64,000 nucleotides of DNA from Candidatus Micrarchaeota archaeon (GCA_016212525.1 JACRGD010000007.1:15112-79111); one strand, 5' to 3'. Counted from the stretch's first letter, positions 36,840-64,000 are shown. A program made the numbers and translations. Notes: generated by a model not told the origin, from the letters alone.

Positions 36840-36840
36840 A

Positions 36841-40062: not shown

Positions 40063-40075
40063 TGAGGCTAAACCT

Positions 40076-42306: not shown

Positions 42307-42509
42307 GTCACCATTTATCGGTCATAGTTTAAATCATTTTGGCTCAAAAAAATAAATGACTTTTAACTACTGCATAAGTGCGTATCGCTTTGAGTAGGAA
42401 AGTTTCGCGTAGTTCCTAATATCAAGGAAGATCAAAAATGTATCGAGTGCTTAAAGTTGGAAATCGTGAAACCCGACACTCAGCTTAAGTTCTCTTCCGG
42501 TCACAAATT

Positions 42510-42529
42510 TATTTATAGTGGGAAAGATA
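42510..42529 (+). promoter_or_regulatory. promoter-like 20-mer TATTTATAGTGGGAAAGATA, copy 2, upstream of hisF
   Basis: 19/20 identical to 35131..35150; TATA box ~70-95 bp upstream of the first conserved hisF codon. Confidence 0.45.
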
Positions 42530-42605
42530 ACTAATTATGTTAAGGTTGTAAAAATGGAAAAGGATATACTTCACAAAAATTAGGACTTCTAAATCGCCAC
42601 TTTGT

Positions 42606-44839: not shown

Positions 44840-44899
44840 TACCCTAACAGAATAATTGCAACCAACAGGAACTTAAACAATATACAAAATTAAATGGAA

Positions 44900-46177: not shown

Positions 46178-46185
46178 AGTATAAT

Positions 46186-46259
46186 AATACGGTAAAAAGA
46201 TTTATATAGAGTAAGGTAATACGTAAAATAGATGATTATTCTGGAATATATTACGGAAT
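46186..46259. promoter_or_regulatory. three evenly spaced TACG-core repeats flanking a TTTATATA box
   Basis: TAATACGGTAAAAA, TAATACGTAAAATA and TATTACGGAATAAT centred about 31 bp apart; TATA box ~28 bp upstream of the ATPase ATG; lies immediately downstream of orc1/cdc6. Confidence 0.4.
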
Positions 46260-46309
46260 AATACCAATAGATACAAGGTAAATACTAGCGACAAAAACAA
46301 ACCAGAGGT

Positions 46310-47539: not shown

Positions 47540-47647
47540 AAATTATTCACCCGCAGAATGGTATTTTTACATTCAAGCTTTAATAGGTTGCGAAAAAAAC
47601 AACCATTTACGAGAGACCCGAAGATAAAATCAAAAATCATTCAGTCA

Positions 47648-48550
47648 TCACTCCAGATCACTAAGCTTCTTTTGCATCTGATTTAACCAAATTCGCTCGC
47701 GCACAAGAACAGGCGTAATTGTCCGGGCCAACTTATCCAGAATAGTTTTACGCTCATGCGAAAGCCATTTGTCCTTTGTTTTTATACTCATAAGAAAAGA
47801 TGGATTAGCCAATAGGATCTGATGGGTGAATTTCTCATAATGCATAATTTTCTGTTTTAACTTCTCAATTCGTTTAAGAGCGGCAGTCTCCATGACAGTT
47901 CCGCGACCAGAAGCTTTATGGGATTCTTTTGTTGCAAGAATCAAACGATAGCCATAGTGACTGAGCTTATCAAGATATTTTGAGAGGGGAATCTTGATAA
48001 GTGTTTTAGTGAGGAGAAGCAACCAGCCTTCCCGAAGCAAAATACGATCAAATTGATCCAGAGCTACAAATGCATCTTCACGTACCATGTTTTCTCGCAA
48101 TCGACCCCGAAGAAAAGGATATTGCTTAAGAATGGAAGTAAGATCGATTTTACCATGCGAACCTCGTAACACGAGCCGAACTTCCTTAATTCCCTGTCTC
48201 TGGCGCCGTAACTGGCCAAGCAAAAAAGAGGCTTCAGATGCAGGAAGTTCCTTAAAATCCAAAAGCCACAGACGCGTCTCGAGTATTGGACCAATATTAG
48301 GATCGGATTGGAATGAGATGAGAAGATCGGGGTAGTATTTGCGAAGATAACGCAACTCGTCAAGATGGACCAGCAGATATTCTTTGATAGTCGCAGAAAA
48401 TTTCTTGAGTTCTACTTTCTTTCTTGAGAGATCACGCCGCAGATCAGAATCACTTATTTTGAGAAATTGTTGTTTTATTGAATGGATTTCATCCTGCATT
48501 TTAGCAATTTTGATAGAGGCATCATCAAGATATTCGATAAGCAGCATCAA
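47648..48550 (-). CDS. hypothetical protein
   Basis: 300-aa ORF upstream of and co-oriented with cdc6; basic and helical; no known motif. Confidence 0.45.
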   Translation of the reverse strand: MMLLIEYLDDASIKIAKMQDEIHSIKQQFLKISDSDLRRDLSRKKVELKKFSATIKEYLLVHLDELRYLRKYYPDLLISFQSDPNIGPILETRLWLLDFKELPASEASFLLGQLRRQRQGIKEVRLVLRGSHGKIDLTSILKQYPFLRGRLRENMVREDAFVALDQFDRILLREGWLLLLTKTLIKIPLSKYLDKLSHYGYRLILATKESHKASGRGTVMETAALKRIEKLKQKIMHYEKFTHQILLANPSFLMSIKTKDKWLSHERKTILDKLARTITPVLVRERIWLNQMQKKLSDLE

Positions 48551-48615
48551 AGACTAAACGAAGGACAAAAATATAAAGAATTAGGCTTGGGATTGAAAAA
48601 ATAGAAAAGAAAGAA

Positions 48616-49497
48616 TTATTGGCAAAGATGGGTGTTCTGGTTGCAGACTTCACCTACATTGCAGTTCTGATTATCATTGCAGAATCCGACCTTGGGAGTG
48701 CATGCATGAGACTCGCAAATCTGATAGGATGCATCACAATCTGCAGTTGTCGCACATTTACCTGCGCTGGGAGTGCATCGGTGAGTTGAGGTCGAGCAGT
48801 ATTCCCAGTCAGTACATTCATTGTCAACACCGCAGAAACCAACCTTTGCGACGCATTTGTTTGTTCGTCCATCGCACTTGGCCCAGGTCTTATCGCAGTT
48901 ATTATCGTTTATGCAGAAACCGGCCTTTGGTTTGCATTGGTGAGTCTTTGGTTCGCAAGTCTGCCAGGTTGTGCAGTCTCCATCAAAGTCGCATCGATCT
49001 GGAAGATAGACACATTTACTCGATTGCTGATCGCAGCGTTTCCATGAATCACAATCAGTGTCTTTTACGCAGAAGCCGGGAGCAGGACCGCATCGGTGAG
49101 TACTAGGACTACAATACTCGACTACAGGCTGGCATTGAGTATCGCCATCGCAGAAACCTGGACCGGGTCTGCAATATTTTGAGGAATCACACACCTGCCA
49201 GCTTTGACAATCGACATTAGTACCACATCGACCGGCAGTATAGATACATTTGTAGGATTTGCCCACATCACAGGTCAAAAGAGAAGCATTGCCAGTATTA
49301 TTGCCGCAGTCTGCAGGAGACTCGCAGTAGCCAGGTAGTTTCATGCATGTTTTTGTACCAAGATTGCATGACTGCCATGGCCGACAATCCTTATCTGCAC
49401 TGCATGAAGGAGCAGTGTTAATACATCCAAAAATAAATATTGACGCCAAAAGAGCAGCTAATATAAGTAATCTCATAAAGGAGATATTTCCGGCCAA
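48616..49497 (-). CDS. secreted protein of seven tandem Cys-rich modules
   Basis: signal peptide, then ~7 repeats of about 38 aa with pattern G(F/Y/R)C-x2-D-x-DC-x2-W-x2-C-x6-C-x3-PG; 48 Cys in 293 aa. Confidence 0.7.
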   Translation of the reverse strand: MAGNISFMRLLILAALLASIFIFGCINTAPSCSADKDCRPWQSCNLGTKTCMKLPGYCESPADCGNNTGNASLLTCDVGKSYKCIYTAGRCGTNVDCQSWQVCDSSKYCRPGPGFCDGDTQCQPVVEYCSPSTHRCGPAPGFCVKDTDCDSWKRCDQQSSKCVYLPDRCDFDGDCTTWQTCEPKTHQCKPKAGFCINDNNCDKTWAKCDGRTNKCVAKVGFCGVDNECTDWEYCSTSTHRCTPSAGKCATTADCDASYQICESHACTPKVGFCNDNQNCNVGEVCNQNTHLCQ

Positions 49498-49593
49498 TGT
49501 TTTTTAAAGCTCCCGCAATCGATCGGGGGTTGCGAAACATTTGAACTCCAAATACGCGATATTAAGAGAGAGTTATTCAGTTAAAATACGAAA

Positions 49594-50271
49594 CTAGAGG
49601 CGTCTCCAGCGATCAAGGGTTGCAAGAAGCATTCCAAAATCGGAAATAGTCGCATCTGCTTTGGACGAGCGACTATTTGCATATTTTCCAGAAAGTATGC
49701 GAATAGTTTTCATGCCGGCTTTCTTAGCTGGAATTATGTCGGCATCTTCTCGATCACCAATCATTAGCGACTCTGTTGGCTTGGCCCTTAGATTCGAGAG
49801 AATGCGCGTGAAAAAGAGTTCATCTTTGGAGCGACCGACATCTTCTGAAACAAAAACATCATCGAAAAAAAGTGCTATACTTAATCGAATGAGTTTATCC
49901 CATTGTTTAATCGACGTACCGTTTGTAGCGACATATAAATTGTAACCCTTTTGACGCAGATTAAGAAGAGTGCTTGGAACCTGAGGATAGGGGGCGATTG
50001 TTGTCTTGGTATCGTGATAAGCAGCGATAGCAGCAGAAACGAATTTAGCACTTTTTTTGATTTTTAGGGATTTGCACAAATCATCAAAATGATGAGTGTA
50101 ATTTGAACCCTTTTTTTGGATTATTTTTGAAAGAGAATGCTCGAGATCGGAATAGGTTGCATCTAAACCCATGCCAATCATTGCATTAATTGCGTTTTTT
50201 CTGGCCAAGGAACTAAAATCAGTAGTCGGAAAGAGGGTATCATCGATATCGAAGAAGATATTTTTTATCAT
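49594..50271 (-). CDS. HAD-superfamily hydrolase
   Basis: 225 aa; motif I FFDIDDTL, motif II TNG, motif IV GDREDADI. Confidence 0.7.
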   Translation of the reverse strand: MIKNIFFDIDDTLFPTTDFSSLARKNAINAMIGMGLDATYSDLEHSLSKIIQKKGSNYTHHFDDLCKSLKIKKSAKFVSAAIAAYHDTKTTIAPYPQVPSTLLNLRQKGYNLYVATNGTSIKQWDKLIRLSIALFFDDVFVSEDVGRSKDELFFTRILSNLRAKPTESLMIGDREDADIIPAKKAGMKTIRILSGKYANSRSSKADATISDFGMLLATLDRWRRL

Positions 50272-50302
50272 GAAAAAATAGAAAGAAAGAAATTAATAAA
50301 CT

Positions 50303-52801
50303 CTATTGATTGGACTCGACAAAGATAGTTGGAGTGTATCCTGTGCCAGTCTGTCTTGGAGAACGTGGTCTTCGTGCTCCTGCATCAGAAGGTACTGGGG
50401 CAGGAACTGCCGCCACTGGAACAACTACAGGAGCTGGAACCACTACCGGAGGCGCAACAACTGCAGGAACTGTGGTATCAGCAGGAACTGAAGAATCTAC
50501 TTGTACCGATGCATCTGCGCTTGGCAAAGGTGCACCTATTGGAGCGCCCAAGGGAACAGATCTACGCGGAGCAGATTCAACAACTGCCGGAGTTGGATGT
50601 GTTTGCGGAGTTCTTGTAGATTTCCACCAAATACCGAAAACACCACCGCCAAGTATTCCAACAACCACAGCAGCTACCCAGGCTTTAAAGGTTCTTGGTC
50701 TGGATGGCAACGCGGATGGATCAACCTCGACAGTGCTTTCTGGATCGACTATAGGGTCGGCGGGAGCTGATGGTGAGAAATCAGCCCTCAAAGTAGTCCC
50801 GTCTCGTGGGCTAGGTCTTTGGGCAACCGGTTCCGAACCAGTATTAGATGTGCCACGAACAGCTCTCGAGGGAGCACCTACAGCAAAGACCTCATCATCC
50901 CAAGGACCAGCCTTAGGGGATGCACGAGTTGTGGGTGGACTAACCGGAGCGTGCGGACCGCTCACGGATGCAGGACCCGGAAGAACACCACCTGGACCGC
51001 GTCTAGTTGCAGTATCTGATGCAACAGGAATCGGAGCAGGAGCCCTTGCTGGAGGCTCAGAACCAAAGGCACCACCCATCATCAGCGTACCACTTGGTGA
51101 TGGAGGTTCACGAAGCACTGGAACAGCTGCCTCATTTGAATTGAAAAGATTTAACCTTAGAAGTCTTCCAGGACCCACTAAAACCTGACCAGATAGTTTA
51201 TCAGTAACGTTAAACATATCCGAACGTCCGGTAATATAGTTCAAATGGAAGGGAGTTGAATCATGCCCATAAGTAACTACGTCAGAATCAGTGGCTATCA
51301 CAACCCGAGCACCAGTAGAATCAGAAAGCACATAGGGAACATTTGGAGCAATATCAGCCATGGATTTAGTTGCATTGACTACTTGCGCACCCCTAAGAAA
51401 TTCGATATTTGAACCCTCATCTGAGTTAGTAACTCGAACCACATCAGAACCAACTTTGGCATATTTAGTTTCGCCAATTTCGACCTTCAAAAAAGCATCG
51501 ACCCTGCCTCCAGAGAAAACAACAAACTCATTAGAACCATACCTAACCAGATTGAGACTAGCAGAAAGAGCAACTACAGTATTGGTATCTTCTAATTTGC
51601 ATTCATAAACAGAAGGACAACCTGATTTCTCTGCTACTTCTTCCAAATTTAGAAGACGAACTGAAACCTTATCAGGAAGACGTCGTGAAACCTCAACTGC
51701 ATAATCGTTACCCATCAAAGATAGTTTTGCATATCGAACTTCTTGGAAGTCAATGGATACCAACTGGTCAGGAGAGCCTAAAGCACAGACCTGAACTTCA
51801 TGGGCATTTGAGAAATAAACGTTCAAAGCAGGACCAAAATTCCTAGATTCACCAACAACCAAATCAGATTTGTTTGGCCGCTCAACTAGACAGTATGAAC
51901 CCTGCGAATCAACATATTCAGAAGTATAGACAACCCCTCTTAAAAGAGCCAAACCAGCTACATCATATTGAACAGAACCGCCGGGAGTGTCTGAAACATC
52001 AAAGTGATGGTCGCCACTACCAGTATAGACCAAATCAACATATCCCGAAGGAGATGCTGCCCTACCATCGCGTACAGGAGTTACCGTAGATGCAGTAGGT
52101 AAAGCAGGAGGAAGTTCATTTTCTGTCCAGACCGAATAATAACGAGTACCGGAGTTTTCCCATCCCAAAACATACGCATCAACACCTGCAGCCATGGCCG
52201 GAGGAACATAGGAAGCAAGTTTAGCTTCAAATACGGCCGGATGATCAGGAACAGAAGCAAGGAAATCCCCGTCTAATTCAGTTATAGTCACATCAGACCC
52301 AGAAGTATCAACATAGATACCCAAAGGCAATCGAACTCCATTTGTATATATGTTAGAGTCAGGAACAATTTCGGCCGGACCGTATCGATGAACAGTTCGA
52401 GTAACATCGACACTAAGTTCACCATTCTTAACAGTAAGCGTGGCATCAAAACCAGTATTACCATGACGAACAAGAATAGACGCTGAATCATTATTAGAGT
52501 TAACATCAAGTTCGGTTCTTGGAATTAGATCATCTAGATTCTTCAGGTAAAAAGGTACATAATTATTGGCAGAATCACGAAGTTCTACAGATCCGACTCC
52601 AGATGAAGTGACATTAGAACAAACAAGCTTCAAATCACCCGGCAAAGTACAGTATTCTTTTACTTCCAAGGATTTGCGAGTTGTTTCTGGACCAGCTGCA
52701 CGAGCAGCAGCAGCTAGAGGCGGAGGCAATGCCACATTACCACCAGTAACATGCGCTGGAACTTCAGAAGCAATTCTTGCACCTATTAATTTTTTTGCCA
52801 T
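50303..52801 (-). CDS. large membrane-anchored protein (single C-terminal TM helix, Pro/Val/Ala-rich tail)
   Basis: 832 aa; TM helix WVAAVVVGILGGGVFGIWW near the C-terminus followed by PAVVAPPVVVPAPVVVP repeats; no known domain. Confidence 0.6.
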   Translation of the reverse strand: MAKKLIGARIASEVPAHVTGGNVALPPPLAAAARAAGPETTRKSLEVKEYCTLPGDLKLVCSNVTSSGVGSVELRDSANNYVPFYLKNLDDLIPRTELDVNSNNDSASILVRHGNTGFDATLTVKNGELSVDVTRTVHRYGPAEIVPDSNIYTNGVRLPLGIYVDTSGSDVTITELDGDFLASVPDHPAVFEAKLASYVPPAMAAGVDAYVLGWENSGTRYYSVWTENELPPALPTASTVTPVRDGRAASPSGYVDLVYTGSGDHHFDVSDTPGGSVQYDVAGLALLRGVVYTSEYVDSQGSYCLVERPNKSDLVVGESRNFGPALNVYFSNAHEVQVCALGSPDQLVSIDFQEVRYAKLSLMGNDYAVEVSRRLPDKVSVRLLNLEEVAEKSGCPSVYECKLEDTNTVVALSASLNLVRYGSNEFVVFSGGRVDAFLKVEIGETKYAKVGSDVVRVTNSDEGSNIEFLRGAQVVNATKSMADIAPNVPYVLSDSTGARVVIATDSDVVTYGHDSTPFHLNYITGRSDMFNVTDKLSGQVLVGPGRLLRLNLFNSNEAAVPVLREPPSPSGTLMMGGAFGSEPPARAPAPIPVASDTATRRGPGGVLPGPASVSGPHAPVSPPTTRASPKAGPWDDEVFAVGAPSRAVRGTSNTGSEPVAQRPSPRDGTTLRADFSPSAPADPIVDPESTVEVDPSALPSRPRTFKAWVAAVVVGILGGGVFGIWWKSTRTPQTHPTPAVVESAPRRSVPLGAPIGAPLPSADASVQVDSSVPADTTVPAVVAPPVVVPAPVVVPVAAVPAPVPSDAGARRPRSPRQTGTGYTPTIFVESNQ

Positions 52802-52803
52802 AG

Positions 52804-54171
52804 TTAAGCACCCTCTTTAGGAACTATAGATATAAGTGTCTCGTATGCATCACGAATACTAGCAGCCAGATCAGCCATTGCATCAGGCTTAAGAACATGG
52901 GGAATCTGAACATGTTCAACTGGAAGAAGTTCATCTGTCTTCCTTGGATTAGGAACATTATCAGATGGAACGAACAAAGCATCCCCATAAGATCCCACAA
53001 CCAAAGCTGCAATTCTCATCATAGATGCAGAATTACCATAGGTCAAACTTCTTGCAGCTGCCAGTCCGGAATCTGGATGATTAGATAAAAAGTCTTGGAA
53101 CTGATCTCCATGAGAACGACCTCTACCATCATCAAGTGCGATTTCTACCAGTTGGCGATGTAACTCTAAATCAGAAAGATGTGGATACTCATGAACCATT
53201 TGAGGAGTTACAAACCTAGCTGCAATGGCCATAACATGTGCAACGGTTGTGGTTGAAAGCTGATCATAAAGAGTCTGCAGATCGCCAACTGATCCGGAAG
53301 TAATTGCAGCCGCGGCACTATCATATGCAGCAGGAGCAACAGCAGTTGAGACGTATCGATGAACATCAACAGCAAATGCAGGATCAAGGATAATTGAAAC
53401 CGCTCTATCTAGATTCATATAAGAAGCAACAGCACATAAATTAACATGATATTGCAACTGGTCAGAATAATTTGGATCTGCCGGATTCATACCAAGAAAC
53501 ACAGGAACGTGTGGATCGAGAGCTTGGGCCAAAGCCAATTTTCTTTCAGAAGCAGCAACCTGAGCCTTAAGATCTGCGACTTGGGTTACTAGAGCATCGT
53601 GTTTATCGACACGAGCAACTACTTCTCGAACAGCCTTTGCTACAACAGCCAAACGACTTTTTGAAGCTCCATCACGAGCAACAGCTTCAGTTCTCGTAAG
53701 TGCGGTACTAAGAGTATCGACACGAGCTGCTATATCGGAAACACGAGAAACTGCCTGAGTTACGGCAACAGGAACTTTAGGAACTACGACGTCATTTACA
53801 AACTCGCCAAATACAGATCTTGCTGTTATTGCTTCTTCAGTTCGCTCCTCAGCTGGTGCTCGCATAGCAGCGACTCCGGTTCTTGCAATGGCAAATAGAG
53901 CAGCGCCCAAAGTACTACGAACACTTCGTTCATCCTCAGAAAGATCAGTAGCACCAACCAAACGAGTAGCTGCAGAAACAGTGAGAGAAATTACACTAGA
54001 GGCAAGAACACCTCTCATGCTTGGAACAGATTTATCATCTGCATCAATAGAATCTGAACCACGAACATCTCCTGCAGCTCGAGCAAATGTCTTTACTAAT
54101 TTTAGAGCATCGTTGAACTTACCTATTTCCTTCGGATTCGTAATAACCGGTTTTGTTGTAGTAGCACTCAT
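52804..54171 (-). CDS. Ala-rich hypothetical protein
   Basis: 455 aa; no known motifs; start is 12 bp after the stop of the upstream gene. Confidence 0.55.
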   Translation of the reverse strand: MSATTTKPVITNPKEIGKFNDALKLVKTFARAAGDVRGSDSIDADDKSVPSMRGVLASSVISLTVSAATRLVGATDLSEDERSVRSTLGAALFAIARTGVAAMRAPAEERTEEAITARSVFGEFVNDVVVPKVPVAVTQAVSRVSDIAARVDTLSTALTRTEAVARDGASKSRLAVVAKAVREVVARVDKHDALVTQVADLKAQVAASERKLALAQALDPHVPVFLGMNPADPNYSDQLQYHVNLCAVASYMNLDRAVSIILDPAFAVDVHRYVSTAVAPAAYDSAAAAITSGSVGDLQTLYDQLSTTTVAHVMAIAARFVTPQMVHEYPHLSDLELHRQLVEIALDDGRGRSHGDQFQDFLSNHPDSGLAAARSLTYGNSASMMRIAALVVGSYGDALFVPSDNVPNPRKTDELLPVEHVQIPHVLKPDAMADLAASIRDAYETLISIVPKEGA

Positions 54172-54183
54172 ATTTCATCCCCC

Positions 54184-56562
54184 CTATACAGATTTTATTT
54201 TATCAAGATCAGTTTCAGTTAATGCCTCTGAATTGACAAAGATTGCTTCACCAAAGGCAACAAAAACAGTCCTAAACGCAGTTGCAAATGCAGCAGGATC
54301 GGATTTAGAACCCTCCAGACCAGTCATACGCGTAGCAACCTGGGCAGCATCAATATCCCCGTGAGAAGTTGCAACTTGACCAAATGCCCTCAATTTGCCA
54401 AATAATCCATCGACCGGACTACCACCATTGGTTGGTTTTTGGAGTTCGGTAATCAGTGCAGCAGGAATTTCTGTTCTTCCACCTGAACTGGAATTGGATA
54501 AGATCTTAGCCAATCGAGCAGAAGTAAAGAACCCATCAACTGCAGTTGCTAATGCAGTTACCGGAGTCATATCGACAACTGGAGCCGGAGCGGCTTTTAC
54601 AGAAGGATCTGAAACCAACTGATCTCCAGTAACTTCAACTTTGAAACGTGGTTTGTTTGATTCAGAAGTTCCCAGATAAGTGACTTTTACGGTTCGTTTT
54701 GTGTAACCACCAGTTTCGAAAGTGTGAGACTCACCAACTACAAGCGAGTTCTGGGTTTTACCAACTCGCTCGGTTCGCGCAGTTGGATCAAAAGAACTGC
54801 CATTTGTCTTGGCATAAGTATAACCTAATGCAGTAAGTACACCGGCAGGATCAAAATCCTTGGATTTTACTTCCAAAGACAAATCAGCACGTCCAGGAAT
54901 GGCCAAACGAACCCAGTCAGATCTGGAAGCAGAAGCAACATCGAAGACCATTTCGCAAGTAGATGGTTCGGTCGTTATTACAGGACCAGATGGCGCTTTA
55001 ACAGCGGCCGGAGCAACAGCTGACTTAGCAGGTTCGGGTGCTCTTGCAGCTTCGGCTCTTGCTTCAACCCGAGCAGGAGCAACTGGAGGTGCTGCTAATT
55101 CAGATGGAGCTGGAGTTCGTACCGCTGCAACTCGTGCTTCGAATTCTTGGATTCGACGCTGTAAGTCAGCTTCGGCCTCACTAAGAGCTCGCTCTCGCTT
55201 ATCCAATGCGCCCAATCTTTGGTTAGCAGCTTCTAATCGAGCTTCAGCTTCAGAAGCAGCAGTTAGAGCAGCAGATTTTCTTGCATCAGCCGAATTAGCA
55301 GCTTCAACTGCAGCAGTCTTTCTTCCTTCCTGTTCATCGGCTTCAGCTTGAGCAGCACTTCGTCTTAACTCTGCAGCAGAAGCAAGACCACTCATTTGAG
55401 TCAAACTCTCATTCGCTTCATCAATTTTAGCAGTAACAGCAGACAAAGCAGATCGTTTTTCACCAAGTGCAAGCCCGAGAGCAGCATCTGATGTTCGACC
55501 TTCAAGTAACGTTCTTTCTAAATTTTCGACTTCAGCCTTAAGAGCATCACGTTTGCCTTCCAAACTAGCAACCTCAGAAGTAAGAGCAGTTGAAGGTCTT
55601 AATGGAGCACGTGGAGGTTTTGGTTTTTGAGGTATCTCAACTGGAGCAAGCATCTGAGAAACATCCAATGGCATGTCAATAGATGTAACTTCAATTGCCA
55701 TCACCGCAGATACAACTGCATCAGAACGTACTGATTCTGAACTTGGCAAAGGAGCCGCAGATGGAAGAGAAGCCAAAAACTCAACAGGAGAAACTACATC
55801 TGGATAATTGCCAGCAGGTAATGGTATTTCTGATCCGGTAAGTGGATTGTTGAGCAAGTCAGAAACATCCTTAATTGAAGAGGTGGCACCATCTAAAGCA
55901 GCTACAGCAGCAGCAGATGCAGCGAGTTGAGCCTCTAATCTTCTACGAACAGTATCAGTTTTTTTTATGGCAGCAGCAACTTCGCCAACAAGTCTTTTCT
56001 TTAACTCACTAACCTCGCCATCGAGTTCTAATCTTCGAGCATCAAGAGCATCACGATCTTTTTCATAAGCAGCAGAAACAGTTTCTCTTTCTCTTGCAAG
56101 TGAAGATTCAGCAGCGATCAAAGCATGAAGAGTCGCAGTGGCAGAAGTAAAAATTTCAGAACCTAAATCAGAGAGAGCCGTGCCGGAAATAGACTGAGGT
56201 TGGGAACTTCCCTCAACATTCAGTACAAAAGTAGCATCGATAGCAGCAGCAACAAGGCCGGGAAGTCTATCTGCATTGAATAGATCAGTGTCTACCTCCA
56301 CAGGACCTGATGAAACAGAACGTATTGGAGTTGTGGGTTTTGGAACGCCTTCGGGAAGTTGTTCTCTAACGGCCAAAACGGAATTGATTGCGGGGCTTAG
56401 TCTAGCTGCCAATTCAGCAGCTGCAGCCATGGCACCAAGACGAACACCATCTTCCAAAAGACCAGTTAAATGTTCATTTAGCTTTGCGCCTGAACCCCTA
56501 GGAACATATTTAACAGCAGACGACGGACCTTTCAAAACCATAGACGTATTTTTTTCTGACAC
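54184..56562 (-). CDS. Ala-rich coiled-coil protein
   Basis: 792 aa; about 350-aa central region of heptad-like Ala/Glu/Arg/Leu repeats (SMC-like coiled coil) flanked by non-repetitive domains. Confidence 0.55.
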   Translation of the reverse strand: MSEKNTSMVLKGPSSAVKYVPRGSGAKLNEHLTGLLEDGVRLGAMAAAAELAARLSPAINSVLAVREQLPEGVPKPTTPIRSVSSGPVEVDTDLFNADRLPGLVAAAIDATFVLNVEGSSQPQSISGTALSDLGSEIFTSATATLHALIAAESSLARERETVSAAYEKDRDALDARRLELDGEVSELKKRLVGEVAAAIKKTDTVRRRLEAQLAASAAAVAALDGATSSIKDVSDLLNNPLTGSEIPLPAGNYPDVVSPVEFLASLPSAAPLPSSESVRSDAVVSAVMAIEVTSIDMPLDVSQMLAPVEIPQKPKPPRAPLRPSTALTSEVASLEGKRDALKAEVENLERTLLEGRTSDAALGLALGEKRSALSAVTAKIDEANESLTQMSGLASAAELRRSAAQAEADEQEGRKTAAVEAANSADARKSAALTAASEAEARLEAANQRLGALDKRERALSEAEADLQRRIQEFEARVAAVRTPAPSELAAPPVAPARVEARAEAARAPEPAKSAVAPAAVKAPSGPVITTEPSTCEMVFDVASASRSDWVRLAIPGRADLSLEVKSKDFDPAGVLTALGYTYAKTNGSSFDPTARTERVGKTQNSLVVGESHTFETGGYTKRTVKVTYLGTSESNKPRFKVEVTGDQLVSDPSVKAAPAPVVDMTPVTALATAVDGFFTSARLAKILSNSSSGGRTEIPAALITELQKPTNGGSPVDGLFGKLRAFGQVATSHGDIDAAQVATRMTGLEGSKSDPAAFATAFRTVFVAFGEAIFVNSEALTETDLDKIKSV

Positions 56563-56677
56563 TCATCCCACCTCAATACTTAGCGAACCACGACGTTTAT
56601 CGGGGCTCGCAACATAAACATTATTGTTATTATCAGTATAAATATGTGTAATCCTCTATTTAAACCTTTCTAACACC

Positions 56678-59600
56678 TTAGAAGTGCCTAAATTCGAAGT
56701 TAAGACGCCCACCAGTTCCAAACTCCATACTCAATTGAACATGCTTGTTTGCTACATCAGGGCATACGCCCGAAGCATATAGTGCATTATCACTCGCACG
56801 GACAAATGTATTGACCGAAGGGTTAAAGGAACCCATACCCAGATGGTTGGAATATACAAATACACCACCTTCAGAACCGGTCATACCATACAAGCTAAGT
56901 TTAGTTGCAACATCCGATTCGTTAACTCCGACTCTACCCGCACCGCAGGTTAGAGTCTGAAGAACACCACCCTGAATAAAGGAAACCGCAATGCTTACAG
57001 TCACTGGATCAGAACGCCAGAGTTTAGCGTTGAGCTCGTTAAGCTGTCGGTCTGCAAGACCAACTATACCAATGACATCGTTCATTGATCCCACCCAGCC
57101 CAATGTTGCAGCCATTTCAAATGAAGATTTTATCATTCCTACAGTCTGTGCACAGAAAACACTATCGGGTTGTCCAGATGATGCGTGCACCACTAAGTCC
57201 AGATTGATAACAGGAAGGGCATCAATAGTCAACGAAAGACGCGAACGATCTTTGAAGGGTGAATTATCAAAGTCGGCAGAAGAATTTCTTGGAGTGGTGG
57301 AGAATCCAACTCGCTCGACTGGGACATAGCCCATAAATTCCAAAAGACAAATGAGTTCGAGCTCAGATGCTGCTGCACCAGCAACAGAAACATTATTCTC
57401 ATATCTGACTTTGGTAAGGGCAGCAGTAACACTGGAAGAATTTGCTTTAATTAACTCGAACCCAGCATCGACCGGGTTAAGAGAAGGTGCATAATTTGCA
57501 ATACCAGTCAAAAACACATCCTGATAGCCAGTCTTATACGAAGCAAATTCAGAGCTCTTTAAGAAGGCAAGCTTCTCTGCGAGACTTGGTTCATCAAGCG
57601 CACATAAGGAATACAGTCTTTCTTTTGCCAAGCGGGCTCGCTCATATCGGGTAGCCGCAGGAACACTCGCATCACCACTACGGATTCGCTTTGCTGATAC
57701 AAGACTAAGAAGAAATTCACGCTTTGCCGGAGGCATATCTAGGAATTCCTGAATTTGAGCCGCTGAAACATCCGAAGAAGCTCCCGAAGCAGATTCACCT
57801 TTGTTTGTAGCCAGAACAACTGCAATCAAATCCTTTTCAGATACAGACATTTCAGCAATCATTCGCTCTGGAGTCTTTCTTCGAACTATTGCAAGGGCAA
57901 GCTCGGATAAAGTAGAATCGAATCGCTCGGTAGGCACACTAGCTGCAACGTTTGCAAGAACATACATCGCATCCATAGTAGAACTATAATATGGACCAGT
58001 TAGACTAGGTCTCCCACGTACATAGCCATCTTTTAAGGCGGCAACATAGCGTCTTGAGAGGGTTTGTGCACGATTAACCTCACGAGACTCGGACATCGGA
58101 GCAAAAACATAGGCCACTGCAGAGGAAGGAGGGAATGATCCATCAGTTACGCCAGCAAGACGGGCAACAATATTCATAATAGATCGGGCACTATCGGCAC
58201 GAACTGGAAGATGAACCGCAGCTGAGCTAGTAAGGACTTTTCCACCAGCATAGGGAGCTTCCAGATCGCCTAAAAGTGAATCGAACGAGGAAACTGCAGC
58301 ATCCAGTCTAGTTCTATAGGCAAGGCGTTTAGTTTTAGCAGCAACCCCAAGCAGAGGTTTGTTAAAGACGCCCGCAAGATCAGGATTCTTAACGATCGCT
58401 TCATTATTCATTGCAATAGCCAGTGCGTATCGCGGATTCTGGGCATAGTCAAGTCCGAAAGCAGAAACATCATAAGCATGCAATTTATCGAAACCAGCAT
58501 TGATGCGAACACTGGCAGAAAGCAGTGCTGAAATATCGGAATTAAATTCTGCATCGGCAAGAGAATGCTCAGTGGGCCCAACAATACCAGTTGCCCAGCC
58601 CTCATAAACAGCTGAAGGAGTCATTGTTCCGATTGTTCCCGCGTGTCGATACCATTTATCTTCATAACGATAAGCAACAAAAGAGTAAACTTTTGCGGAT
58701 TTAGAATCGGTTTTGGGTTTTACTACCCGAACCGGAACAACTGGAACCTTAGTTCCGTTTGGAAGAATCATAACCAAAGGTTTTCCTATTGAAACAGTTT
58801 TACCGTTGACAGAGAGGTCATTATTAGAATCAAAGGTAAAGCAGTCTGCATTTTGGGTTGCTAAAGTTGCAAGTTTTGCCTCTTCACCAGACCTCCAGCC
58901 GCCATCTGCAGGAGTTTCTCCAAAGTCAGCATGCATAAGAATTGAGAATCTCTGAGCTACCCCTGCACGCGCCTGTTTATAGGTCGCATCAAGAGCAGAG
59001 CGAACTGCACCCGTATTTGGAGTCTGGGATTCTAGCATCTTAAATGCAACTAAATAATCTGCACCAGTTGCCTTGGCCATGAATTCAGCAGCAAGACCAA
59101 AATTAGTCTGCCTGAAAACGGAATTTCTCAATTTCAAATCAAAGCTGGATGGGGTAGTACGAGCAATTGGATTGTAATCATGAATAATGGCACATAGTTG
59201 AGTGTAGGCAGGAGAGTTTGGAATTGCTTCTGCTGCTGCATCTGCCGAAAGGCGATCTACCCGATTTACAGCCAGTGCAGCTTCTTCGTATGCTTCAACG
59301 GCCGCAACGAACCGGTCGACAAATGGCTTGGATTCAGGCGCAGTAAAATGAGTCCTTACGAAATCAATAACATCAAGAGAATCCTCATTCGCCGCACCAT
59401 TAAGAAGGAAGTTAGATCTAAAGTGTTGCGACTCGACAATTGGAACTGTTGCAGCAGCAAGCTCTTTGGCTTTTTGAGTAAGAGCGGCTTTGAGTTTTGC
59501 CTGATCTGGAGATAACCGAGTTATATTAGTACGAATATCAGAACGGGCACTGGCATAACCATCAGCGACCGGGGTTGTTCCATCATTAACTAAAATAGAA

Positions 59601-60817
59601 ATAACACATTCTAATTTTTCAGAAAGCGATCCCGAACTGGGATATCTTCGGTGAAGTACATTATTCGCAACGTTGTCAGTAGCGTTTGAGGTAAACCGAT
59701 GTTGACCTCGCATATGAGCATCAAGAGAAGCAACTACTGCGGAAGCAAAAACAGCCAGATCGAAATTAACAGCACGACCACTAGTACTTTCAGCAACTAC
59801 ATACCCGGGTTCAGAAAGAAGCGATCCATCGGAAGCTCGCTTTGTGAGTTTGAAACCAAGGAAATTTCTCGCGGCAGAAGTTGTCATTTGCTCTGGAGTA
59901 ATAGGGGTTGCAGCTACTGGTTTATGAGCAGGACGGGCAACTGGAGCTGGAGCGGGTGCTACGGGAGCTGGAGAAACCGGAGCTGGCGCGGGAGAAACGA
60001 ATCCAGTCGGAGGATGCAAAACATCAACACCAGGTGGGGCAGGAGACGGAGATCTAGGAGCAGCAGGCAGAGTAGGTTGCTCGAAATCGATGACTTCGGG
60101 AGGAGATGCAGGCGCAAACGAACCAGACCCGGAAGGAACGACAATAGAACCAGAATTAGAAGCGGAAACTGGATGTAATGAACCTGTAGTAGCTGCATCA
60201 TCAACTAAAGTATCGGGCTCAGCTGCAGGTTCCGAACCAGGTCTTCGTCTTCGCACATCAGTAGCTTCATCATCCCGAACAACGCGGACTGGAAGTCCTT
60301 CTCCGGGAATTACCGGAGCACCAGGAACTCGATCCACACGAAGAAGAGAAACGCCTGGGCTGGCAGGTTCATCTAGAACCGGAGGTTGCTCAGCTGAAAA
60401 CGGAGGAGTAAATGGAATTGGAGGACGAACGACATAAGGATCAGATGGAGTTGCCGCACGATTTGGTTGTGAAAACCCGACAAGACCCATGACAAGCCCA
60501 AGTCCGGAATTGGGACTTATAGGCCCAGCTGGAGATAATGAAGATGCTGGAGGAACTAAAGAAGCACGAGCAGCATCATCAACCGCAGTAACATCATCAG
60601 GACCCAGATCAACAGGAAGAGGCGGCGGTCCTCGAGTTTCTTGAGGAGTAGGGGAAACGGGAACTGGCGCAGTAGAGGGAGGGTTTGCTTCATGCAGAGA
60701 AGCTGCCTTTGCAGAGCGAATCTGACGAACAAAAGAATCAGTTGCAGCTCTAAATGGATTGAGTGGATGACCATACCTTACATCACGACTATTTCTATAT
60801 CTAACCATAAATATCAC
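56678..60817 (-). CDS. giant hypothetical protein with Pro-rich disordered N-terminal region
   Basis: 1379 aa; first ~300 aa Pro/Ser/Ala-rich (PAPAPVSPAPVAPAPAPVARP); the remainder is not repetitive and has no known motif; start overlaps the upstream gene by 4 nt. Confidence 0.6.
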   Translation of the reverse strand: MIFMVRYRNSRDVRYGHPLNPFRAATDSFVRQIRSAKAASLHEANPPSTAPVPVSPTPQETRGPPPLPVDLGPDDVTAVDDAARASLVPPASSLSPAGPISPNSGLGLVMGLVGFSQPNRAATPSDPYVVRPPIPFTPPFSAEQPPVLDEPASPGVSLLRVDRVPGAPVIPGEGLPVRVVRDDEATDVRRRRPGSEPAAEPDTLVDDAATTGSLHPVSASNSGSIVVPSGSGSFAPASPPEVIDFEQPTLPAAPRSPSPAPPGVDVLHPPTGFVSPAPAPVSPAPVAPAPAPVARPAHKPVAATPITPEQMTTSAARNFLGFKLTKRASDGSLLSEPGYVVAESTSGRAVNFDLAVFASAVVASLDAHMRGQHRFTSNATDNVANNVLHRRYPSSGSLSEKLECVISILVNDGTTPVADGYASARSDIRTNITRLSPDQAKLKAALTQKAKELAAATVPIVESQHFRSNFLLNGAANEDSLDVIDFVRTHFTAPESKPFVDRFVAAVEAYEEAALAVNRVDRLSADAAAEAIPNSPAYTQLCAIIHDYNPIARTTPSSFDLKLRNSVFRQTNFGLAAEFMAKATGADYLVAFKMLESQTPNTGAVRSALDATYKQARAGVAQRFSILMHADFGETPADGGWRSGEEAKLATLATQNADCFTFDSNNDLSVNGKTVSIGKPLVMILPNGTKVPVVPVRVVKPKTDSKSAKVYSFVAYRYEDKWYRHAGTIGTMTPSAVYEGWATGIVGPTEHSLADAEFNSDISALLSASVRINAGFDKLHAYDVSAFGLDYAQNPRYALAIAMNNEAIVKNPDLAGVFNKPLLGVAAKTKRLAYRTRLDAAVSSFDSLLGDLEAPYAGGKVLTSSAAVHLPVRADSARSIMNIVARLAGVTDGSFPPSSAVAYVFAPMSESREVNRAQTLSRRYVAALKDGYVRGRPSLTGPYYSSTMDAMYVLANVAASVPTERFDSTLSELALAIVRRKTPERMIAEMSVSEKDLIAVVLATNKGESASGASSDVSAAQIQEFLDMPPAKREFLLSLVSAKRIRSGDASVPAATRYERARLAKERLYSLCALDEPSLAEKLAFLKSSEFASYKTGYQDVFLTGIANYAPSLNPVDAGFELIKANSSSVTAALTKVRYENNVSVAGAAASELELICLLEFMGYVPVERVGFSTTPRNSSADFDNSPFKDRSRLSLTIDALPVINLDLVVHASSGQPDSVFCAQTVGMIKSSFEMAATLGWVGSMNDVIGIVGLADRQLNELNAKLWRSDPVTVSIAVSFIQGGVLQTLTCGAGRVGVNESDVATKLSLYGMTGSEGGVFVYSNHLGMGSFNPSVNTFVRASDNALYASGVCPDVANKHVQLSMEFGTGGRLNFEFRHF

Positions 60818-63030
60818 CGATTGGACCTCTCAGAAATTTTCCGAATTTGTCTTTGTATCTGATCGGAAATTGATGAGGGATTAGCAGAATCATACATTGA
60901 GCGGATGTCACAAACTGGAAGTAAAAGTTCTGGAGGAAGTAAAAGTAAATCTCCTTTATAGTAGGAAGAAAGATAATAGAGCGTCCGGAACAACACGCGG
61001 TCAGTTCCAGAGGGAAGAGAGGTTTCTAAATCAGATGGAGCTGGAATTGAACCAAAAATATCCCAAAGAGAAACAGTTGTACCTCCAGGCGCTAACCCGC
61101 TTAGGTAGGCAAGTGAAACTGTAGCCCGGAAAAGAGCAGTATGTAAATCAGATCCGGTTTTACCACGAATAAGGGGCATATATGGTTCATAAATCTGTGG
61201 ATATGCATCAGCAGAAGTCGCATAGCTGAAAAGATCTCGGGCGATAACAGACGCAACAGCGCAGAAGGGACCGTTGAAGCGACCGTTGGGGTAAAACTCC
61301 TGGACTATAAAAGCCTCGAAGGATAGATCAGAAGAACTAGTAGCAAGGTACCCATAGTTTCCTTTAGATTTGGAAGTACCAATCTGGAGTGAATTAGAAA
61401 CAGTCAAAGGCAACTCGAATTCCCTAATTGGAGCAGGGGCAGTAACTTCGCCCCGTGAGAGGGCAGTTGCAGTAGAATATGCGTTTCTAAGGATATCAAT
61501 TCGACGAAGATTACAGGACATGTCGCGCGTGTCTGCTGCACCTCTCTCGCCAACTACATAGCGCAAATGCTCATCATCTGAGCCAAGCGGATCGATAACT
61601 AAAATTCCACCCACTGAATTGGTATAGAGTGTCGCCAGCCCGCCATCAACGCAAATTACCCGGCCGCGAGTGCGATCGGTTCGGCCTTCATGAACATCAA
61701 GAATCTTTCGCGCTCTTCTATGGCCAACATAAAAAGTATATGAACCCATTTGGGTGAGCCACGATGAAAGAGCAGAATCAAGAGACCATGCAGCAGGAAG
61801 TTTTCCCGGTAGTTGAACGGGTTCACTGTGATACATCATCGAATAGTCCCTCTTAGTTACAGCCAGAGCATGAGAACGGGTTTTAGAAGACACATCTATA
61901 TCAGCCCAGGAACAGAAAAGTGCAGTTGTACCTTTAGAATCGCCAAGCAAGTTTGCAAAATAATCATCTAATGCATCAATAGAATCGACAGAAAGTACCG
62001 GCCCTCCGTGGATAAAGAGAGCGTCATCGATCCGTATTGCTGCCTTGGTAGAGCGAACAAAATCCAATGTTCCATCCCTCTCCATTTCCTCGCATGCAAA
62101 TCTCCAGAGGTCCATCTCGCCATGATCAACAAGGTATGAAAAAGAGGATCGCTCACGAAGGAGAAAGTTTGCTAGCGAACGAGGATCATAACCGATCAAA
62201 GCGCGGGTTCGATCACATGCCGCTTTATCTTCATCATAGGCATCTTTGAATTTTTTCTCATACGAGCGAAGAATTGAATCCAGCGTATTGGAATCGAAAA
62301 GCTTTCCGATACCAGAATCGTTTATAGCTTTATCAGCAGGACCAAATAATTTGAATTCCTTCCAGGCGGAATTGAGATGACTTAGATCCAAAACAACGCG
62401 AAGTAGATATGAAAAATCATCAGCATTTGCAAAGATTTCGCGGACCTTATCAAGTGGAGTTGTCCTAAGGAGTTCGACTAAGCGCAGGAACATTGCCTCG
62501 TGATTTCCCCGAAGAGTATGAATGCGAATTTTGCCATCGGTTTCATCAGCCTGACATTGGAGATCCTGTACAAAGTCTAATACGTCCATGCCTTCTGTCC
62601 CGCGATCAACATAATCGCCCGCAAAGACGATTTGGGTTCCTTTGGGCAGATCAGTATTCAAAGAATATCGCTCGAAATAGGGGGCAGTGGGGTCAGATCC
62701 CAGATTGGCCACGATGACACCGGCTTCCATAAGTTCGCGAACTAACTCTTTTGCGTCTCCCTGGACATCTCCTATGACATAAATACGGGAGGCGTTGGAA
62801 ACTCGATCAATAGTTTGACCCGATCGGTAAGTAGGTTCTATTTTATTTAGATGATCAGCATAGGGATTGATTTTAGAATTTGTAATTTTGGGCTTCGCGT
62901 CTTTTCTGGTTCTCCAATAAGCCCTATAAGCACAGATTGCAGGAGTGTCAGCAATACCAGCACCGGAAATGTTAAGACTTCGATAAAGCCGACCATAAGG
63001 ACTAGTATGCTTCAACAATCTTCCACCCAT
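60814..63030 (-). CDS. PPP-family Ser/Thr phosphatase-like metallophosphoesterase fused to a ~400-aa unknown C-terminal region
   Basis: 738 aa; GDVQGD...GDYVDRG...GNHE motif series of calcineurin-like/PPP phosphatases in the N-terminal third. Confidence 0.65.
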   Translation of the reverse strand: MGGRLLKHTSPYGRLYRSLNISGAGIADTPAICAYRAYWRTRKDAKPKITNSKINPYADHLNKIEPTYRSGQTIDRVSNASRIYVIGDVQGDAKELVRELMEAGVIVANLGSDPTAPYFERYSLNTDLPKGTQIVFAGDYVDRGTEGMDVLDFVQDLQCQADETDGKIRIHTLRGNHEAMFLRLVELLRTTPLDKVREIFANADDFSYLLRVVLDLSHLNSAWKEFKLFGPADKAINDSGIGKLFDSNTLDSILRSYEKKFKDAYDEDKAACDRTRALIGYDPRSLANFLLRERSSFSYLVDHGEMDLWRFACEEMERDGTLDFVRSTKAAIRIDDALFIHGGPVLSVDSIDALDDYFANLLGDSKGTTALFCSWADIDVSSKTRSHALAVTKRDYSMMYHSEPVQLPGKLPAAWSLDSALSSWLTQMGSYTFYVGHRRARKILDVHEGRTDRTRGRVICVDGGLATLYTNSVGGILVIDPLGSDDEHLRYVVGERGAADTRDMSCNLRRIDILRNAYSTATALSRGEVTAPAPIREFELPLTVSNSLQIGTSKSKGNYGYLATSSSDLSFEAFIVQEFYPNGRFNGPFCAVASVIARDLFSYATSADAYPQIYEPYMPLIRGKTGSDLHTALFRATVSLAYLSGLAPGGTTVSLWDIFGSIPAPSDLETSLPSGTDRVLFRTLYYLSSYYKGDLLLLPPELLLPVCDIRSMYDSANPSSISDQIQRQIRKISERSNR

Positions 63031-63229
63031 CCCCCATTCTGTTTATATTAATAGTAAGTTATGGAAAGTGTTTATTAAGGGATGTGCTCGACCACGATAG
63101 CGCAGGAAACGATTAAATACATAGTCTCAGACGATGGGAAGCTCAAAAGACGGAAAATTTAGGTGAATAAAAATATTTGTTACTTTTTAGTGCCAAAATA
63201 GATTCAATTTGGATTAAAAAAGGGACAAA

Positions 63230-64000
63230 TTATTCCAAAAGAAGAGTTTTTATCTGATAATCACCAATTAAGATAGTTTCAAACTGATTAAATTCGCTCA
63301 ATTGAATTTTTGTCTTTGAATTTCCTCCAATTTCAATCACAATTTTCTCTCCATTAATATTGACTATATAGTCGGGAGATTTTTTAGCTCCCTTTAGAGT
63401 ATTAACCACTCCACCTATCGATTCTAAACCAAATAAAACTGATTCTTCCCGTATGCTTCCGATATCAAAAGGAACGTGCAATTGCCTGCATATGGCAACC
63501 CTCAAATTAGGATGAGTAAATAATATTTTAGGTTCTGCACGGATAAGTTTTGCCCCCCTGGCATATGGAAGAATTAACCGGATCACTTTCATTTCTTCCA
63601 AAACTTTCACAATTTCTGCCACAGATGTTTTTGAAATACGCAGATTATTTGATAAAGAGGAAAGACTTAGTTCACCTGGCGGCGAAGTTGCAAGTCGTAT
63701 TAAGAGCGATTCCATGGCATGAGTTTTTTCTAACGATAATTTTGTTATGGAAACACTATCTTCCCTTACAGATTTACGAATTGTATTGAAAATAGAATTG
63801 AGTGCATCGTCTTTATTATAATTTAAAGAAACAGGAAACCCACCGATTTCAACATACTCTTTATAGGCACGTTCAACATCATCGTTTTTTGCAACAAACT
63901 CAAGTGATTTGTCCCGATCGATCCAAAGATTTTTGGCCTCTTGCTCTTTTGCGTATTTAATATACAAAAATTCTCTTAGAGTCATAGGCAGGATAGTGTA
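63230..64000 (-). CDS. COG1373/DUF4143-family ATPase, C-terminal part (gene continues beyond right window edge)
   Basis: ORF 63230..63985 has an open frame upstream to the window end (YTILP precedes the first Met); DUF4143-like domain; second member of this family in the window. Confidence 0.6.
   Translation of the reverse strand, partial: YTILPMTLREFLYIKYAKEQEAKNLWIDRDKSLEFVAKNDDVERAYKEYVEIGGFPVSLNYNKDDALNSIFNTIRKSVREDSVSITKLSLEKTHAMESLLIRLATSPPGELSLSSLSNNLRISKTSVAEIVKVLEEMKVIRLILPYARGAKLIRAEPKILFTHPNLRVAICRQLHVPFDIGSIREESVLFGLESIGGVVNTLKGAKKSPDYIVNINGEKIVIEIGGNSKTKIQLSEFNQFETILIGDYQIKTLLLE

Follow-up and report, generated by a model that had tools for sequence, protein, structure and literature searches.

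Gene layout of the cluster

The locus described here lies in a 64,000-nt stretch of a Candidatus Micrarchaeota archaeon genome (GCA_016212525.1, JACRGD010000007.1:15112-79111), referred to below as the window, with positions counted from its first letter. Between 50303 and 63030, five consecutive open reading frames (ORFs) on the minus strand encode proteins of 738, 1379, 792, 455, and 832 amino acids (aa). A first-pass annotation had proposed them as a horizontally acquired island of foreign composition; the ORFs are real and lie where that annotation placed them, and the evidence assembled below argues against the origin that it gave them. With moderate confidence, we read the block as a chromosomal, vertically inherited, lineage-restricted, and very fast-evolving cluster of one Micrarchaeota clade, and not as a recent import. 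Its conserved core is the downstream trio of 792-, 455-, and 832-aa genes, joined by an upstream partner that is lineage-specific, and we take the cluster to be ancestral and hyper-divergent and to encode, probably, a membrane-anchored scaffold.

The first gene in the direction of transcription (60814-63030, minus strand like all features of the cluster) encodes a PPP-type metallophosphoesterase domain with a helical insert, followed by an unassigned C-terminal region of ~250 aa. Next comes the gene for a 1379-aa orphan giant (56678-60817), whose GTG start overlaps the stop of the phosphatase gene by 4 nt, making translational coupling of the two genes probable. The overlap reads GTGA and not ATGA, as had been annotated, and the tight packing with spacers of 2-12 bp described earlier breaks down at the following junction. 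There, a 115-nt spacer (56563-56677) holds its own TTTAAATA box (56657-56664) and a GAGGTG Shine-Dalgarno sequence ahead of the gene for the 792-aa Ala-rich coiled-coil protein (54184-56562, GTG start at 56562). An Ala-rich 455-aa orphan (52804-54171) and the membrane-anchored 832-aa protein (50303-52801) complete the trio. With this spacer, the block is probably divided into two transcription units, 738+1379 and 792+455+832, and the TTTAAATA box is the likely internal promoter of the second. A 199-nt AT-rich spacer 5' of the phosphatase gene (63031-63229, minus) is a likely promoter region as well. At the other end, 31 nt (50272-50302, minus) separate the stop of the 832-aa gene from the start of a gene for a TIGR02253-family HAD hydrolase (49594-50271, minus), which lies outside the cluster and is the conserved synteny anchor for the comparisons below.

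An independent Logan assembly (run SRR12113407) contains a 30-kb contig that is 100% identical to window positions 44184-63202 and reproduces the junction between the block and its downstream neighbor on the HAD side. This contig (SRR12113407_418289) ends at 63202, inside the 199-nt spacer, and the upstream junction is backed by the contig of the metagenome-assembled genome alone.

Base composition and codon usage

The GC content of the block is 45.5%, compared to 40.8% in the rest of the window, and not the ~52% reported initially. Just 12% of its 500-nt windows reach 50% GC, and peaks of 53-55% occur nowhere but in two segments rich in Pro (50.4-51.2 and 59.8-60.4 kb). The case for recent horizontal transfer of a 12.7-kb island out of a GC-rich donor would draw on this difference of 4.7 points, on the amino acid composition of four of the genes, which lies 2.5-3.6 standard deviations (sd) from that of their neighbors, and on the tight packing of genes without homologs. 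Measured against the 47 other ORFs in the window, these four proteins are outliers both in G+A+R+P content (GARP, z = 2.5 to 3.6) and in F+Y+M+I+N+K content (FYMINK, z = −2.3 to −3.3). The Ala/Pro/Arg/Val-rich composition that had been attributed to all five proteins thus holds for four of them; the phosphatase gene is compositionally ordinary (GARP z = 1.4; GC3 0.354 observed, 0.356 expected).

When the codon positions are separated, the GC excess is located wholly at positions 1 and 2. GC1 is 0.60-0.63 (~0.61) and GC2 is 0.46-0.52 (~0.50) in the cluster genes, because their content of Ala, Pro, Val, Arg, Ser, and Gly makes these two positions GC-rich. At the third position the step is reversed: GC3 is 0.22-0.29 in four genes, compared to a host average of 0.36 and a value of 0.35 expected from host codon usage. 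Relative to the expectation from minus-strand genes, GC3 is ~0.09-0.14 lower in three genes and 0.065 lower in the 1379-aa gene (host sd 0.055). The log-likelihood per codon under minus-strand host usage is 0.045 to 0.075 above expectation (host sd 0.039), and the preferred codons of the block are those of minus-strand host genes, used slightly more strongly. The synonymous sites of the 738- and 1379-aa genes are likewise host-like.

The block prefers T-ending codons (GCT, GGT, TCT, ACT, GTT, and CGT), while the window as a whole prefers A-ending ones. This preference was considered as a foreign signature and rejected, as it is a strand effect common to all minus-strand genes in the window: at four-fold sites every one of them has T3 of ~0.31-0.53 and A3 of ~0.2, and plus-strand genes reverse the pattern. 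The synonymous sites of the block look native, near the local AT-biased and strand-specific mutational equilibrium, and the block is not compositionally foreign. A GC step alone is a poor sign of foreign DNA; splitting it by codon position and correcting for strand bias reversed the inference here, and in AT-rich genomes with strong skew this check would expose many supposed "islands" as false.

The strand asymmetry itself extends across the whole window (1-64000), where the plus strand is A-rich throughout and plus-strand genes have A3 of ~0.47 and T3 of ~0.18 at four-fold sites. No switch of the asymmetry occurs anywhere, including the surroundings of the Orc1/Cdc6 gene (46310-47539).

A counterpart of the trio in a related lineage

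Using Orc1 to scan for synteny across 37 Micrarchaeota loci, with one genome per species, we found one lineage that keeps the neighborhood, represented by CAZPWA010000013.1 and two Logan contigs (loci L003/L040, L041, and L042). Identity to CAZPWA010000013.1 is 71% for Orc1, 54% for the HAD hydrolase, 52% for a Cys-rich protein, and 37% for a Lys-rich protein. Directly upstream of the HAD gene and on the same strand, this relative carries genes of 657, 505, and 608 aa. Their order and size class agree with those of the window trio, with an Ala-rich coiled coil, an Ala-rich protein, and a membrane-anchored protein in both lineages. The unusual composition recurs as well: in a genome of 36% GC whose neighboring proteins have ~6% Ala, the relative's trio has 11-17% Ala, GC1 of ~0.6, GC2 of 0.40-0.47, and GC3 of 0.16-0.22. 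The spacer to the HAD gene measures 31 nt in the window and 32 nt in the relative and is partly alignable.

The agreement in architecture is closest between the 832- and 608-aa proteins. As in its counterpart, the N-terminus of the 608-aa protein is short and basic and leads into a beta-rich body, followed by a Pro-rich stalk, a juxtamembrane patch of acidic residues, and one transmembrane (TM) helix, and a hydropathy scan, the one method applied here, finds no hydrophobic N-terminal segment in it. Both proteins end in a Pro/Ala/Val tail that has a Gly-rich terminus and, ~15 residues before the last one, a cluster of Arg; the 608-aa tail, with a PAVV-type stretch, RRRR, and GGFGNFEGM, is collinear with the 832-aa tail. 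In a global alignment the two C-terminal modules score z = 3.5, a value reached by 1 of 500 shuffles, and hhalign matches the juxtamembrane and TM stretches with E = 0.0037 at a probability of only 9%. The 608-aa protein also contains an insert of 31 aa (L003 3120-3524; P0010 residues 47-77) that its two closest homologs lack, and the peptide of this insert is encoded again antisense just downstream; this inverted duplication in CAZPWA010000013.1 is probably an assembly artifact.

The most specific link between the two lineages is a 23-nt initiation block, TATTGAGGTGGGATGNNTGTCAG (56556-56578, minus), which comprises the GAGGTG Shine-Dalgarno sequence, an out-of-frame ATG, and, four nt after that ATG, the GTG/TTG start. 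It is identical at the first trio gene of the window and of all three related contigs (L040 5935-5957, L041 5258-5280, and L042 1479-1501), is unique in the window, and is absent from 37 other Micrarchaeota loci; its 11-nt core is also unique. The block has been perfectly kept while the downstream coding sequence diverged. RNA structure in the conserved leader is not significant (z-scores of −0.6 and +0.3). A TTTAAATA box lies 75-95 nt upstream of the first trio gene in both lineages (75 nt in the relative). Scans of JGI metagenomes were negative both with the relative's family alignment and with the 23-nt DNA block.

These findings come close, for three of the five genes, to what the first-pass annotation had named as evidence against a foreign island, namely the same genes in relatives at host-like GC and codon usage: the trio has a counterpart at the HAD junction, and no counterpart was found for the 738- and 1379-aa genes. 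The relative has another gene upstream of the trio, on the opposite strand, encoding a 1387-aa giant that begins with a J-domain (E = 3e-23) and continues in a long Ala-rich body; at this place the window has the phosphatase gene overlapping the 1379-aa orphan gene on the same strand as the trio. The two giants share no similarity (z = −1). This difference between the lineages could reflect either an inversion with a swap of heads or independent gain. The upstream flank differs too, with a COG1373 gene in the window and VIT1 in the relative. At the other 35 Orc1 loci nothing similar occurs within 10 kb, and synteny is lost there.

These differences bring in another explanation, in which the site beside the HAD gene is a recombination or integration hotspot where the two lineages captured unrelated cassettes independently. 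The dissimilar upstream neighbors (phosphatase and giant versus an opposite-strand J-domain giant; COG1373 versus VIT1) fit it, as do the lack of significant protein similarity between the two trios and the break of the independent assembly just upstream of the block. Independent capture would have to account for the identity of the 23-nt block, otherwise unique, at the start of the first trio gene, as well as for the common three-gene order, similar sizes, shared C-terminal module, unusual composition, and HAD spacer of similar length, and we consider it quite unlikely.

Evolutionary rate and residence time

Between L040 and L041, the ratio of nonsynonymous to synonymous substitution rates (dN/dS) is 0.07 for VIT1 and 0.08 for the HAD hydrolase; in the trio it rises to 0.34, 0.52, and 0.52, and the giant beside it has 0.36. 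The raised ratio spans the full length of each cluster gene and is nowhere clearly above 1. With proteins evolving 4- to 6-fold faster, and the HAD hydrolases already reduced to 54% identity, loss of detectable similarity between the window and the relative (saturation) is the predicted outcome.

The strand asymmetry offers a second measure of residence time. The block is inverted between the two genomes relative to a TPR-VIT1 gene pair, whose homologs in the window lie at 29.0-30.5 kb on the plus strand, and four-fold sites on its coding strand are T-rich in the window and A-rich in the relative. The opposite biases indicate that each copy has been on its own replication strand long enough to reach equilibrium with it. 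Since the sequences have fully turned over, the shared richness in Ala, Val, and Pro is not a relic of a donor and has been kept by selection in both lineages. Strong AT mutation pressure and rapid turnover have not removed this richness, which points to selection acting on composition and not on sequence.

The same evidence bears on an older import, in which the common ancestor of both lineages took up the cluster, perhaps from a virus or plasmid, and the genes were then domesticated while their synonymous sites ameliorated; that such an uptake may have occurred counts against the reading we favor. The cluster is seen only in two syntenic lineages, with none at the other 35 loci, its composition is unlike the rest of the proteome, and orphan status is typical of archaeal mobile-element genes. 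However, the loss of synteny at those loci makes absence there uninformative, and the proteins have diverged to saturation, so that the bias of a donor should have been erased and its persistence in both lineages points to selection. No virus-like or plasmid-like gene accompanies the cluster, and we regard an ancient acquisition as unlikely.

Searches for homologs, mobile elements, and defense systems

For four of the five proteins, no relatives were found in Pfam, NCBIfam, PHROGs, PADLOC, PDB, or the phage and plasmid collections. PHROGs returned matches to the phosphatase domain and the coiled coil only; PDB searches and lenient Pfam searches with sub-domains were negative apart from the phosphatase domain. 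Pattern scans of IMG/VR, tblastn against 50,697 phage records, and a search of the plasmid collection were all negative. The description of the block as a previously undescribed multi-protein system is borne out by these results, with the largest protein unmatched among 1.84 billion cluster representatives. At the same time, orphan clusters are common in DPANN genomes. This one is real, undescribed, and lineage-restricted, and its conservation shows up solely in position, architecture, composition, and a short element at the start of translation; its unusual features are the compositional paradox and the conserved start block.

Integrase, transposase, capsid, conjugation, P-loop, and defense signatures are absent from the five proteins in Pfam, NCBIfam, PHROGs, and PADLOC (the first-pass annotation had also noted the lack of integrase- and capsid-like ones), and no mobility genes lie in or beside the block (Pfam, NCBIfam, and PHROGs). 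No tRNA gene adjoins it, the nearest being at 29.6 kb. Its boundaries carry no repeats apart from a 25-nt intergenic motif shared with another spacer, and att-like flanking repeats were rejected as none were found there. A diversity-generating retroelement was likewise rejected, since no template/variable repeat pair is present, and so was a role for the two flanking COG1373 genes as element-bounding repeats, as these are 24% identical to each other.

A recent acquisition is therefore left with no integrase, transposase, adjacent tRNA, or flanking repeats and no donor, phage, or plasmid match. It also conflicts with GC3 values below those of host genes, with synonymous codons that follow the host's strand-specific pattern, and with a trio counterpart of the same composition and identical start block in a relative with only 71% Orc1 identity. 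These host-like synonymous sites, the missing mobility genes, and the counterpart of the trio at the same junction do not support the claim of a horizontally acquired foreign island; a recent import is largely refuted, and we judge it to be extremely improbable.

Two COG1373-type ATPase genes (AAA_14 plus DUF4143; 44900-46177 and 63230-64000, both minus) flank the region and match the PADLOC candidate PDC-S01 (E = 3e-98 and 9e-17). The block could on this basis be the cargo of a defense island, an undescribed anti-virus system between the two ATPases, and its fast-evolving, lineage-specific genes would suit such a role. Metallophosphoesterases and long coiled coils also occur in some defense systems. 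Against this, the five proteins match no PADLOC model apart from a coiled-coil hit to LmuB (E = 8e-4) and contain no nuclease, ATPase, TIR, Sir2, or other effector domain. The two COG1373 genes lie 17 kb apart, one of them beyond Orc1, and the relative's trio sits between VIT1 and HAD with no defense genes beside it. A defense function of this kind seems very unlikely to us.

Predicted architecture of the five proteins

The 738-aa protein carries the sole Pfam domain among the five, Metallophos (PF00149; residues 82-207, 35.2 bits against a cut-off of 21.5, E = 2e-8), as the first-pass annotation had held for its calcineurin-like phosphatase. It also matches a NinI-like Ser/Thr phosphatase in PHROGs (E = 3e-13) and, weakly, the Shewanella cold-active phosphatase (2zbm/1v73). 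The phosphatase core (61591-62805, minus; residues ~76-480) contains the motifs GDVQGD (87-92), GDYVDRG (138-144), GNHE (175-178), IHGG (340-343), and VGH (435-437). A word-based protein search with the full protein gave no match, and it is unrelated to the window's other Metallophos gene (31863-32501). A single-sequence AlphaFold2 (AF2) model has a mean predicted local distance difference test score (pLDDT) of 33.6, too poor for a fold search.

The N-terminal 299 residues of the 1379-aa giant form a Pro-rich low-complexity segment (59921-60817, minus; 17-25% Pro), which coincides with a local GC peak. In a word-indexed search of 5.8 billion proteins the giant matches itself alone. A full HMMER search with its 1080 non-Pro-rich residues (300-1379) against the 1.84 billion cluster representatives returned itself and P0009; the latter was rejected as spurious, since its score is the sum of a weak 55-aa match to each unit of a 10-fold repeat. 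A degenerate J-domain at the N-terminus ("RYGHPLNP") was also considered and rejected, as there is no Pfam signal and no HPD motif.

Within the trio, the 792-aa protein (16.8% Ala) has two coiled-coil stretches (residues ~139-232 and 327-483), linkers rich in Pro, and a mixed domain at its C-terminus, and its matches to SMC, SbcC, and LmuB cover the coiled coil alone. The 455-aa protein (15.8% Ala) has no domain detected in Pfam, NCBIfam, PHROGs, or PDB. The 832-aa protein consists, in order, of a short basic N-terminus, a beta-rich region (~57-500), a Pro/Ser/Ala stalk (561-700; 19% Pro), a TM helix, and a 105-aa tail; the beta-rich assignment comes from a low-confidence AF2 model (mean pLDDT 35.9; too poor for a fold search). 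No homolog of it was found in IMG/VR, phage, plasmid, or PDB searches. Its TM helix (50621-50692, minus; residues 704-727, WVAAVVVGILGGGVFGIWW) reaches a Kyte-Doolittle value of 2.01 in a 19-residue window and is the only one among the five proteins. The tail (50306-50620, minus; residues 728-832) consists of Pro/Ala/Val repeats, RRPRSPR, and a Gly/Thr-rich end, so that the single C-terminal anchor and Pro/Ala/Val tail described in the first-pass annotation stand. An N-terminal signal peptide is found in none of the five proteins by hydropathy scan, the only method used for this, and the charges flanking the TM helix are ambiguous as to topology. Residues 534-615 of the 792-aa protein (54718-54963) and 238-322 of the 832-aa protein (51836-52090) align in BLASTP with 33% identity over 87 aa (E = 7e-4), which is suggestive only of a weakly shared domain of ~85 aa.

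A membrane-anchored scaffold as a working model

From this anatomy, the single TM helix of the 832-aa protein would hold a large assembly at the cytoplasmic membrane, with the beta-rich domain of the protein facing the cytoplasm and the 105-aa Pro/Ala/Val tail projecting outward. A cytoplasmic orientation is suggested because the protein has no signal peptide, its partners have neither signal peptide nor TM helix, and the beta-rich domain may be weakly shared with the soluble 792-aa protein. An elongated scaffold attached to the 832-aa protein would be built from the 455-aa protein and the 792-aa coiled coil, and a giant with a "head", the phosphatase here and the J-domain in the relative, would control assembly or turnover. 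The opposite topology, with the beta-rich domain outside as in S-layer-type proteins, may also apply. Rapid divergence of the cluster could reflect low constraint on coiled-coil and disordered scaffolds or, in an episymbiont, an arms race driven by host contact or virus exposure. The membrane or cytoskeletal complex with a regulatory phosphatase that the earlier annotation had envisaged is compatible with this anatomy and, like the model given here, is inferred from it.

Several points weigh against the reading of the block as a vertically inherited, conserved scaffold cluster. The window trio and the relative's trio show no significant protein similarity (BLASTP, phmmer, and hhalign were negative or marginal), so that their orthology rests on position, architecture, composition, and the 23-nt block. 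The comparison covers one related lineage in three contigs, and the 738- and 1379-aa genes, which have no counterpart there, could be a later addition. Synonymous divergence (dS) varies three- to five-fold among genes between L040 and L041, which hints at recombination and weakens the extrapolation of rates. The topology, the formation of a complex, and the regulatory role of the phosphatase are all deduced from sequence. Finally, motif I of the phosphatase, read from the sequence as GDVQGD, has Gln90 at the place of the PPP metal-binding His, and with this replacement the 738-aa protein may be an inactive pseudo-enzyme or an active one with altered metal binding.

As an extension of the scaffold model, the trio and giant might together constitute an undescribed membrane-anchored apparatus of one Micrarchaeota clade with interchangeable regulatory heads, a PPP phosphatase or a J-domain, an idea that we put forward as doubtful but conceivable. 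DPANN archaea depend on physical contact with a host; the proteins involved are almost unknown, as a large share of DPANN genes are orphans. If such an apparatus exists, it could underlie symbiont-host contact or unexplained cell structures of the ARMAN type, such as the cytoplasmic tubular organelle mentioned in PMC6098224. The locus shows how a conserved cluster hidden by extreme divergence can be recovered through synteny, composition, and an initiation element, and for envelope or scaffold machinery in Micrarchaeota it offers a set of candidate genes along with a 23-nt handle for searches.

Genomic neighborhood

The neighbors of the block are ordinary chromosomal genes, including those for Orc1/Cdc6, the HAD hydrolase, the his operon (35-44 kb), Nop56/58, and GMP synthase, along with a DsbA-like thioredoxin and the two COG1373 ATPases. 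Between HAD and Orc1, both lineages have a gene for a Cys-rich repeat protein with a weak match to DUF5885 (48616-49497; L040 11989-12843), and the relative's version has an N-terminal hydrophobic signal-like segment. The 25-nt A-rich intergenic motif, TGAAAAAATAGAAA..GAAAGAA.TTA, occurs at 48594-48618 and 50271-50295 in copies that are 84% identical. These lie in the spacers upstream of a 300-aa ORF (47648-48550) and of the HAD gene, with the second copy overlapping the first base of the HAD start codon, and the motif may be a shared promoter or terminator element.

The histidine biosynthesis operon (35481-43989) is apparently complete, with hisD, hisC, hisB, hisG, hisH, hisA/F, and hisIE; DPANN archaea are usually described as biosynthetically poor. 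Two minus-strand tRNA genes of 124 nt (15031-15154) and 135 nt (17453-17587) were found by Rfam and missed by ARAGORN, and presumably contain introns.

Comparison with known systems

The block resembles genomic islands in its contiguous step in GC and amino acid composition and in its orphan genes. It differs from them in that the step is reversed at synonymous sites, in lacking mobility genes, tRNA, and repeats, and, for the trio, in having a counterpart at the same site in a relative. Compared to proviruses and archaeal viruses, it has no capsid, packaging, or integrase genes and no relatives in viral collections.

The phosphatase shares GDYVDRG, GNHE, HGG, and GH with bacterial-type PPPs (lambda/NinI, Shewanella "Shelph", and the bacterial Pnkp phosphatase domain), and its best matches are NinI-like, the Pnkp phosphatase domain, and the Shewanella cold-active phosphatase. 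Unlike these, its motif I is GDVQGD and not GDxHG, it has a helical insert of ~130 aa and ~330 more residues without an assignable domain, and its gene is coupled, probably in translation, to that of an orphan giant. A phosphoesterase together with a long coiled coil also recalls Mre11-Rad50/SbcCD. A Walker A motif is missing from all five proteins, the motifs of the 738-aa protein are PPP-type (GDxVDRG, GNHE), and the SMC/SbcC matches cover the coiled coil alone, with no ATPase head, so that an Mre11/Rad50-like pair was rejected.

C-terminally anchored archaeal surface (S-layer-type) glycoproteins, reviewed in PMC6098224, are similar to the 832-aa protein in having a beta-rich domain, a Pro/Ser/Thr-rich stalk, and one C-terminal TM helix followed by basic residues. 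The 832-aa protein differs from them in its lack of an N-terminal signal peptide, its 105-aa tail after the TM helix, and operon partners without export signals. Among J-domain (DnaJ, PF00226) co-chaperones, the relative's protein is a J-domain head on a body that makes up a protein of ~1380 aa beside the trio, and the phosphatase and giant of the window are arranged comparably. The 1379-aa protein, however, has no J-domain or HPD motif and no similarity to the relative's giant, and its gene lies on the other strand relative to the trio.

Coiled-coil scaffold and cytoskeletal proteins such as Streptomyces Scy/FilP and crescentin provide a further comparison. No sequence relationship to these is detected, and the parallel is one of working principle only: in both cases, long Ala-rich coiled coils without ATPase heads, here the 792-aa protein, would combine fast divergence with a preserved architecture and an association with a membrane anchor.

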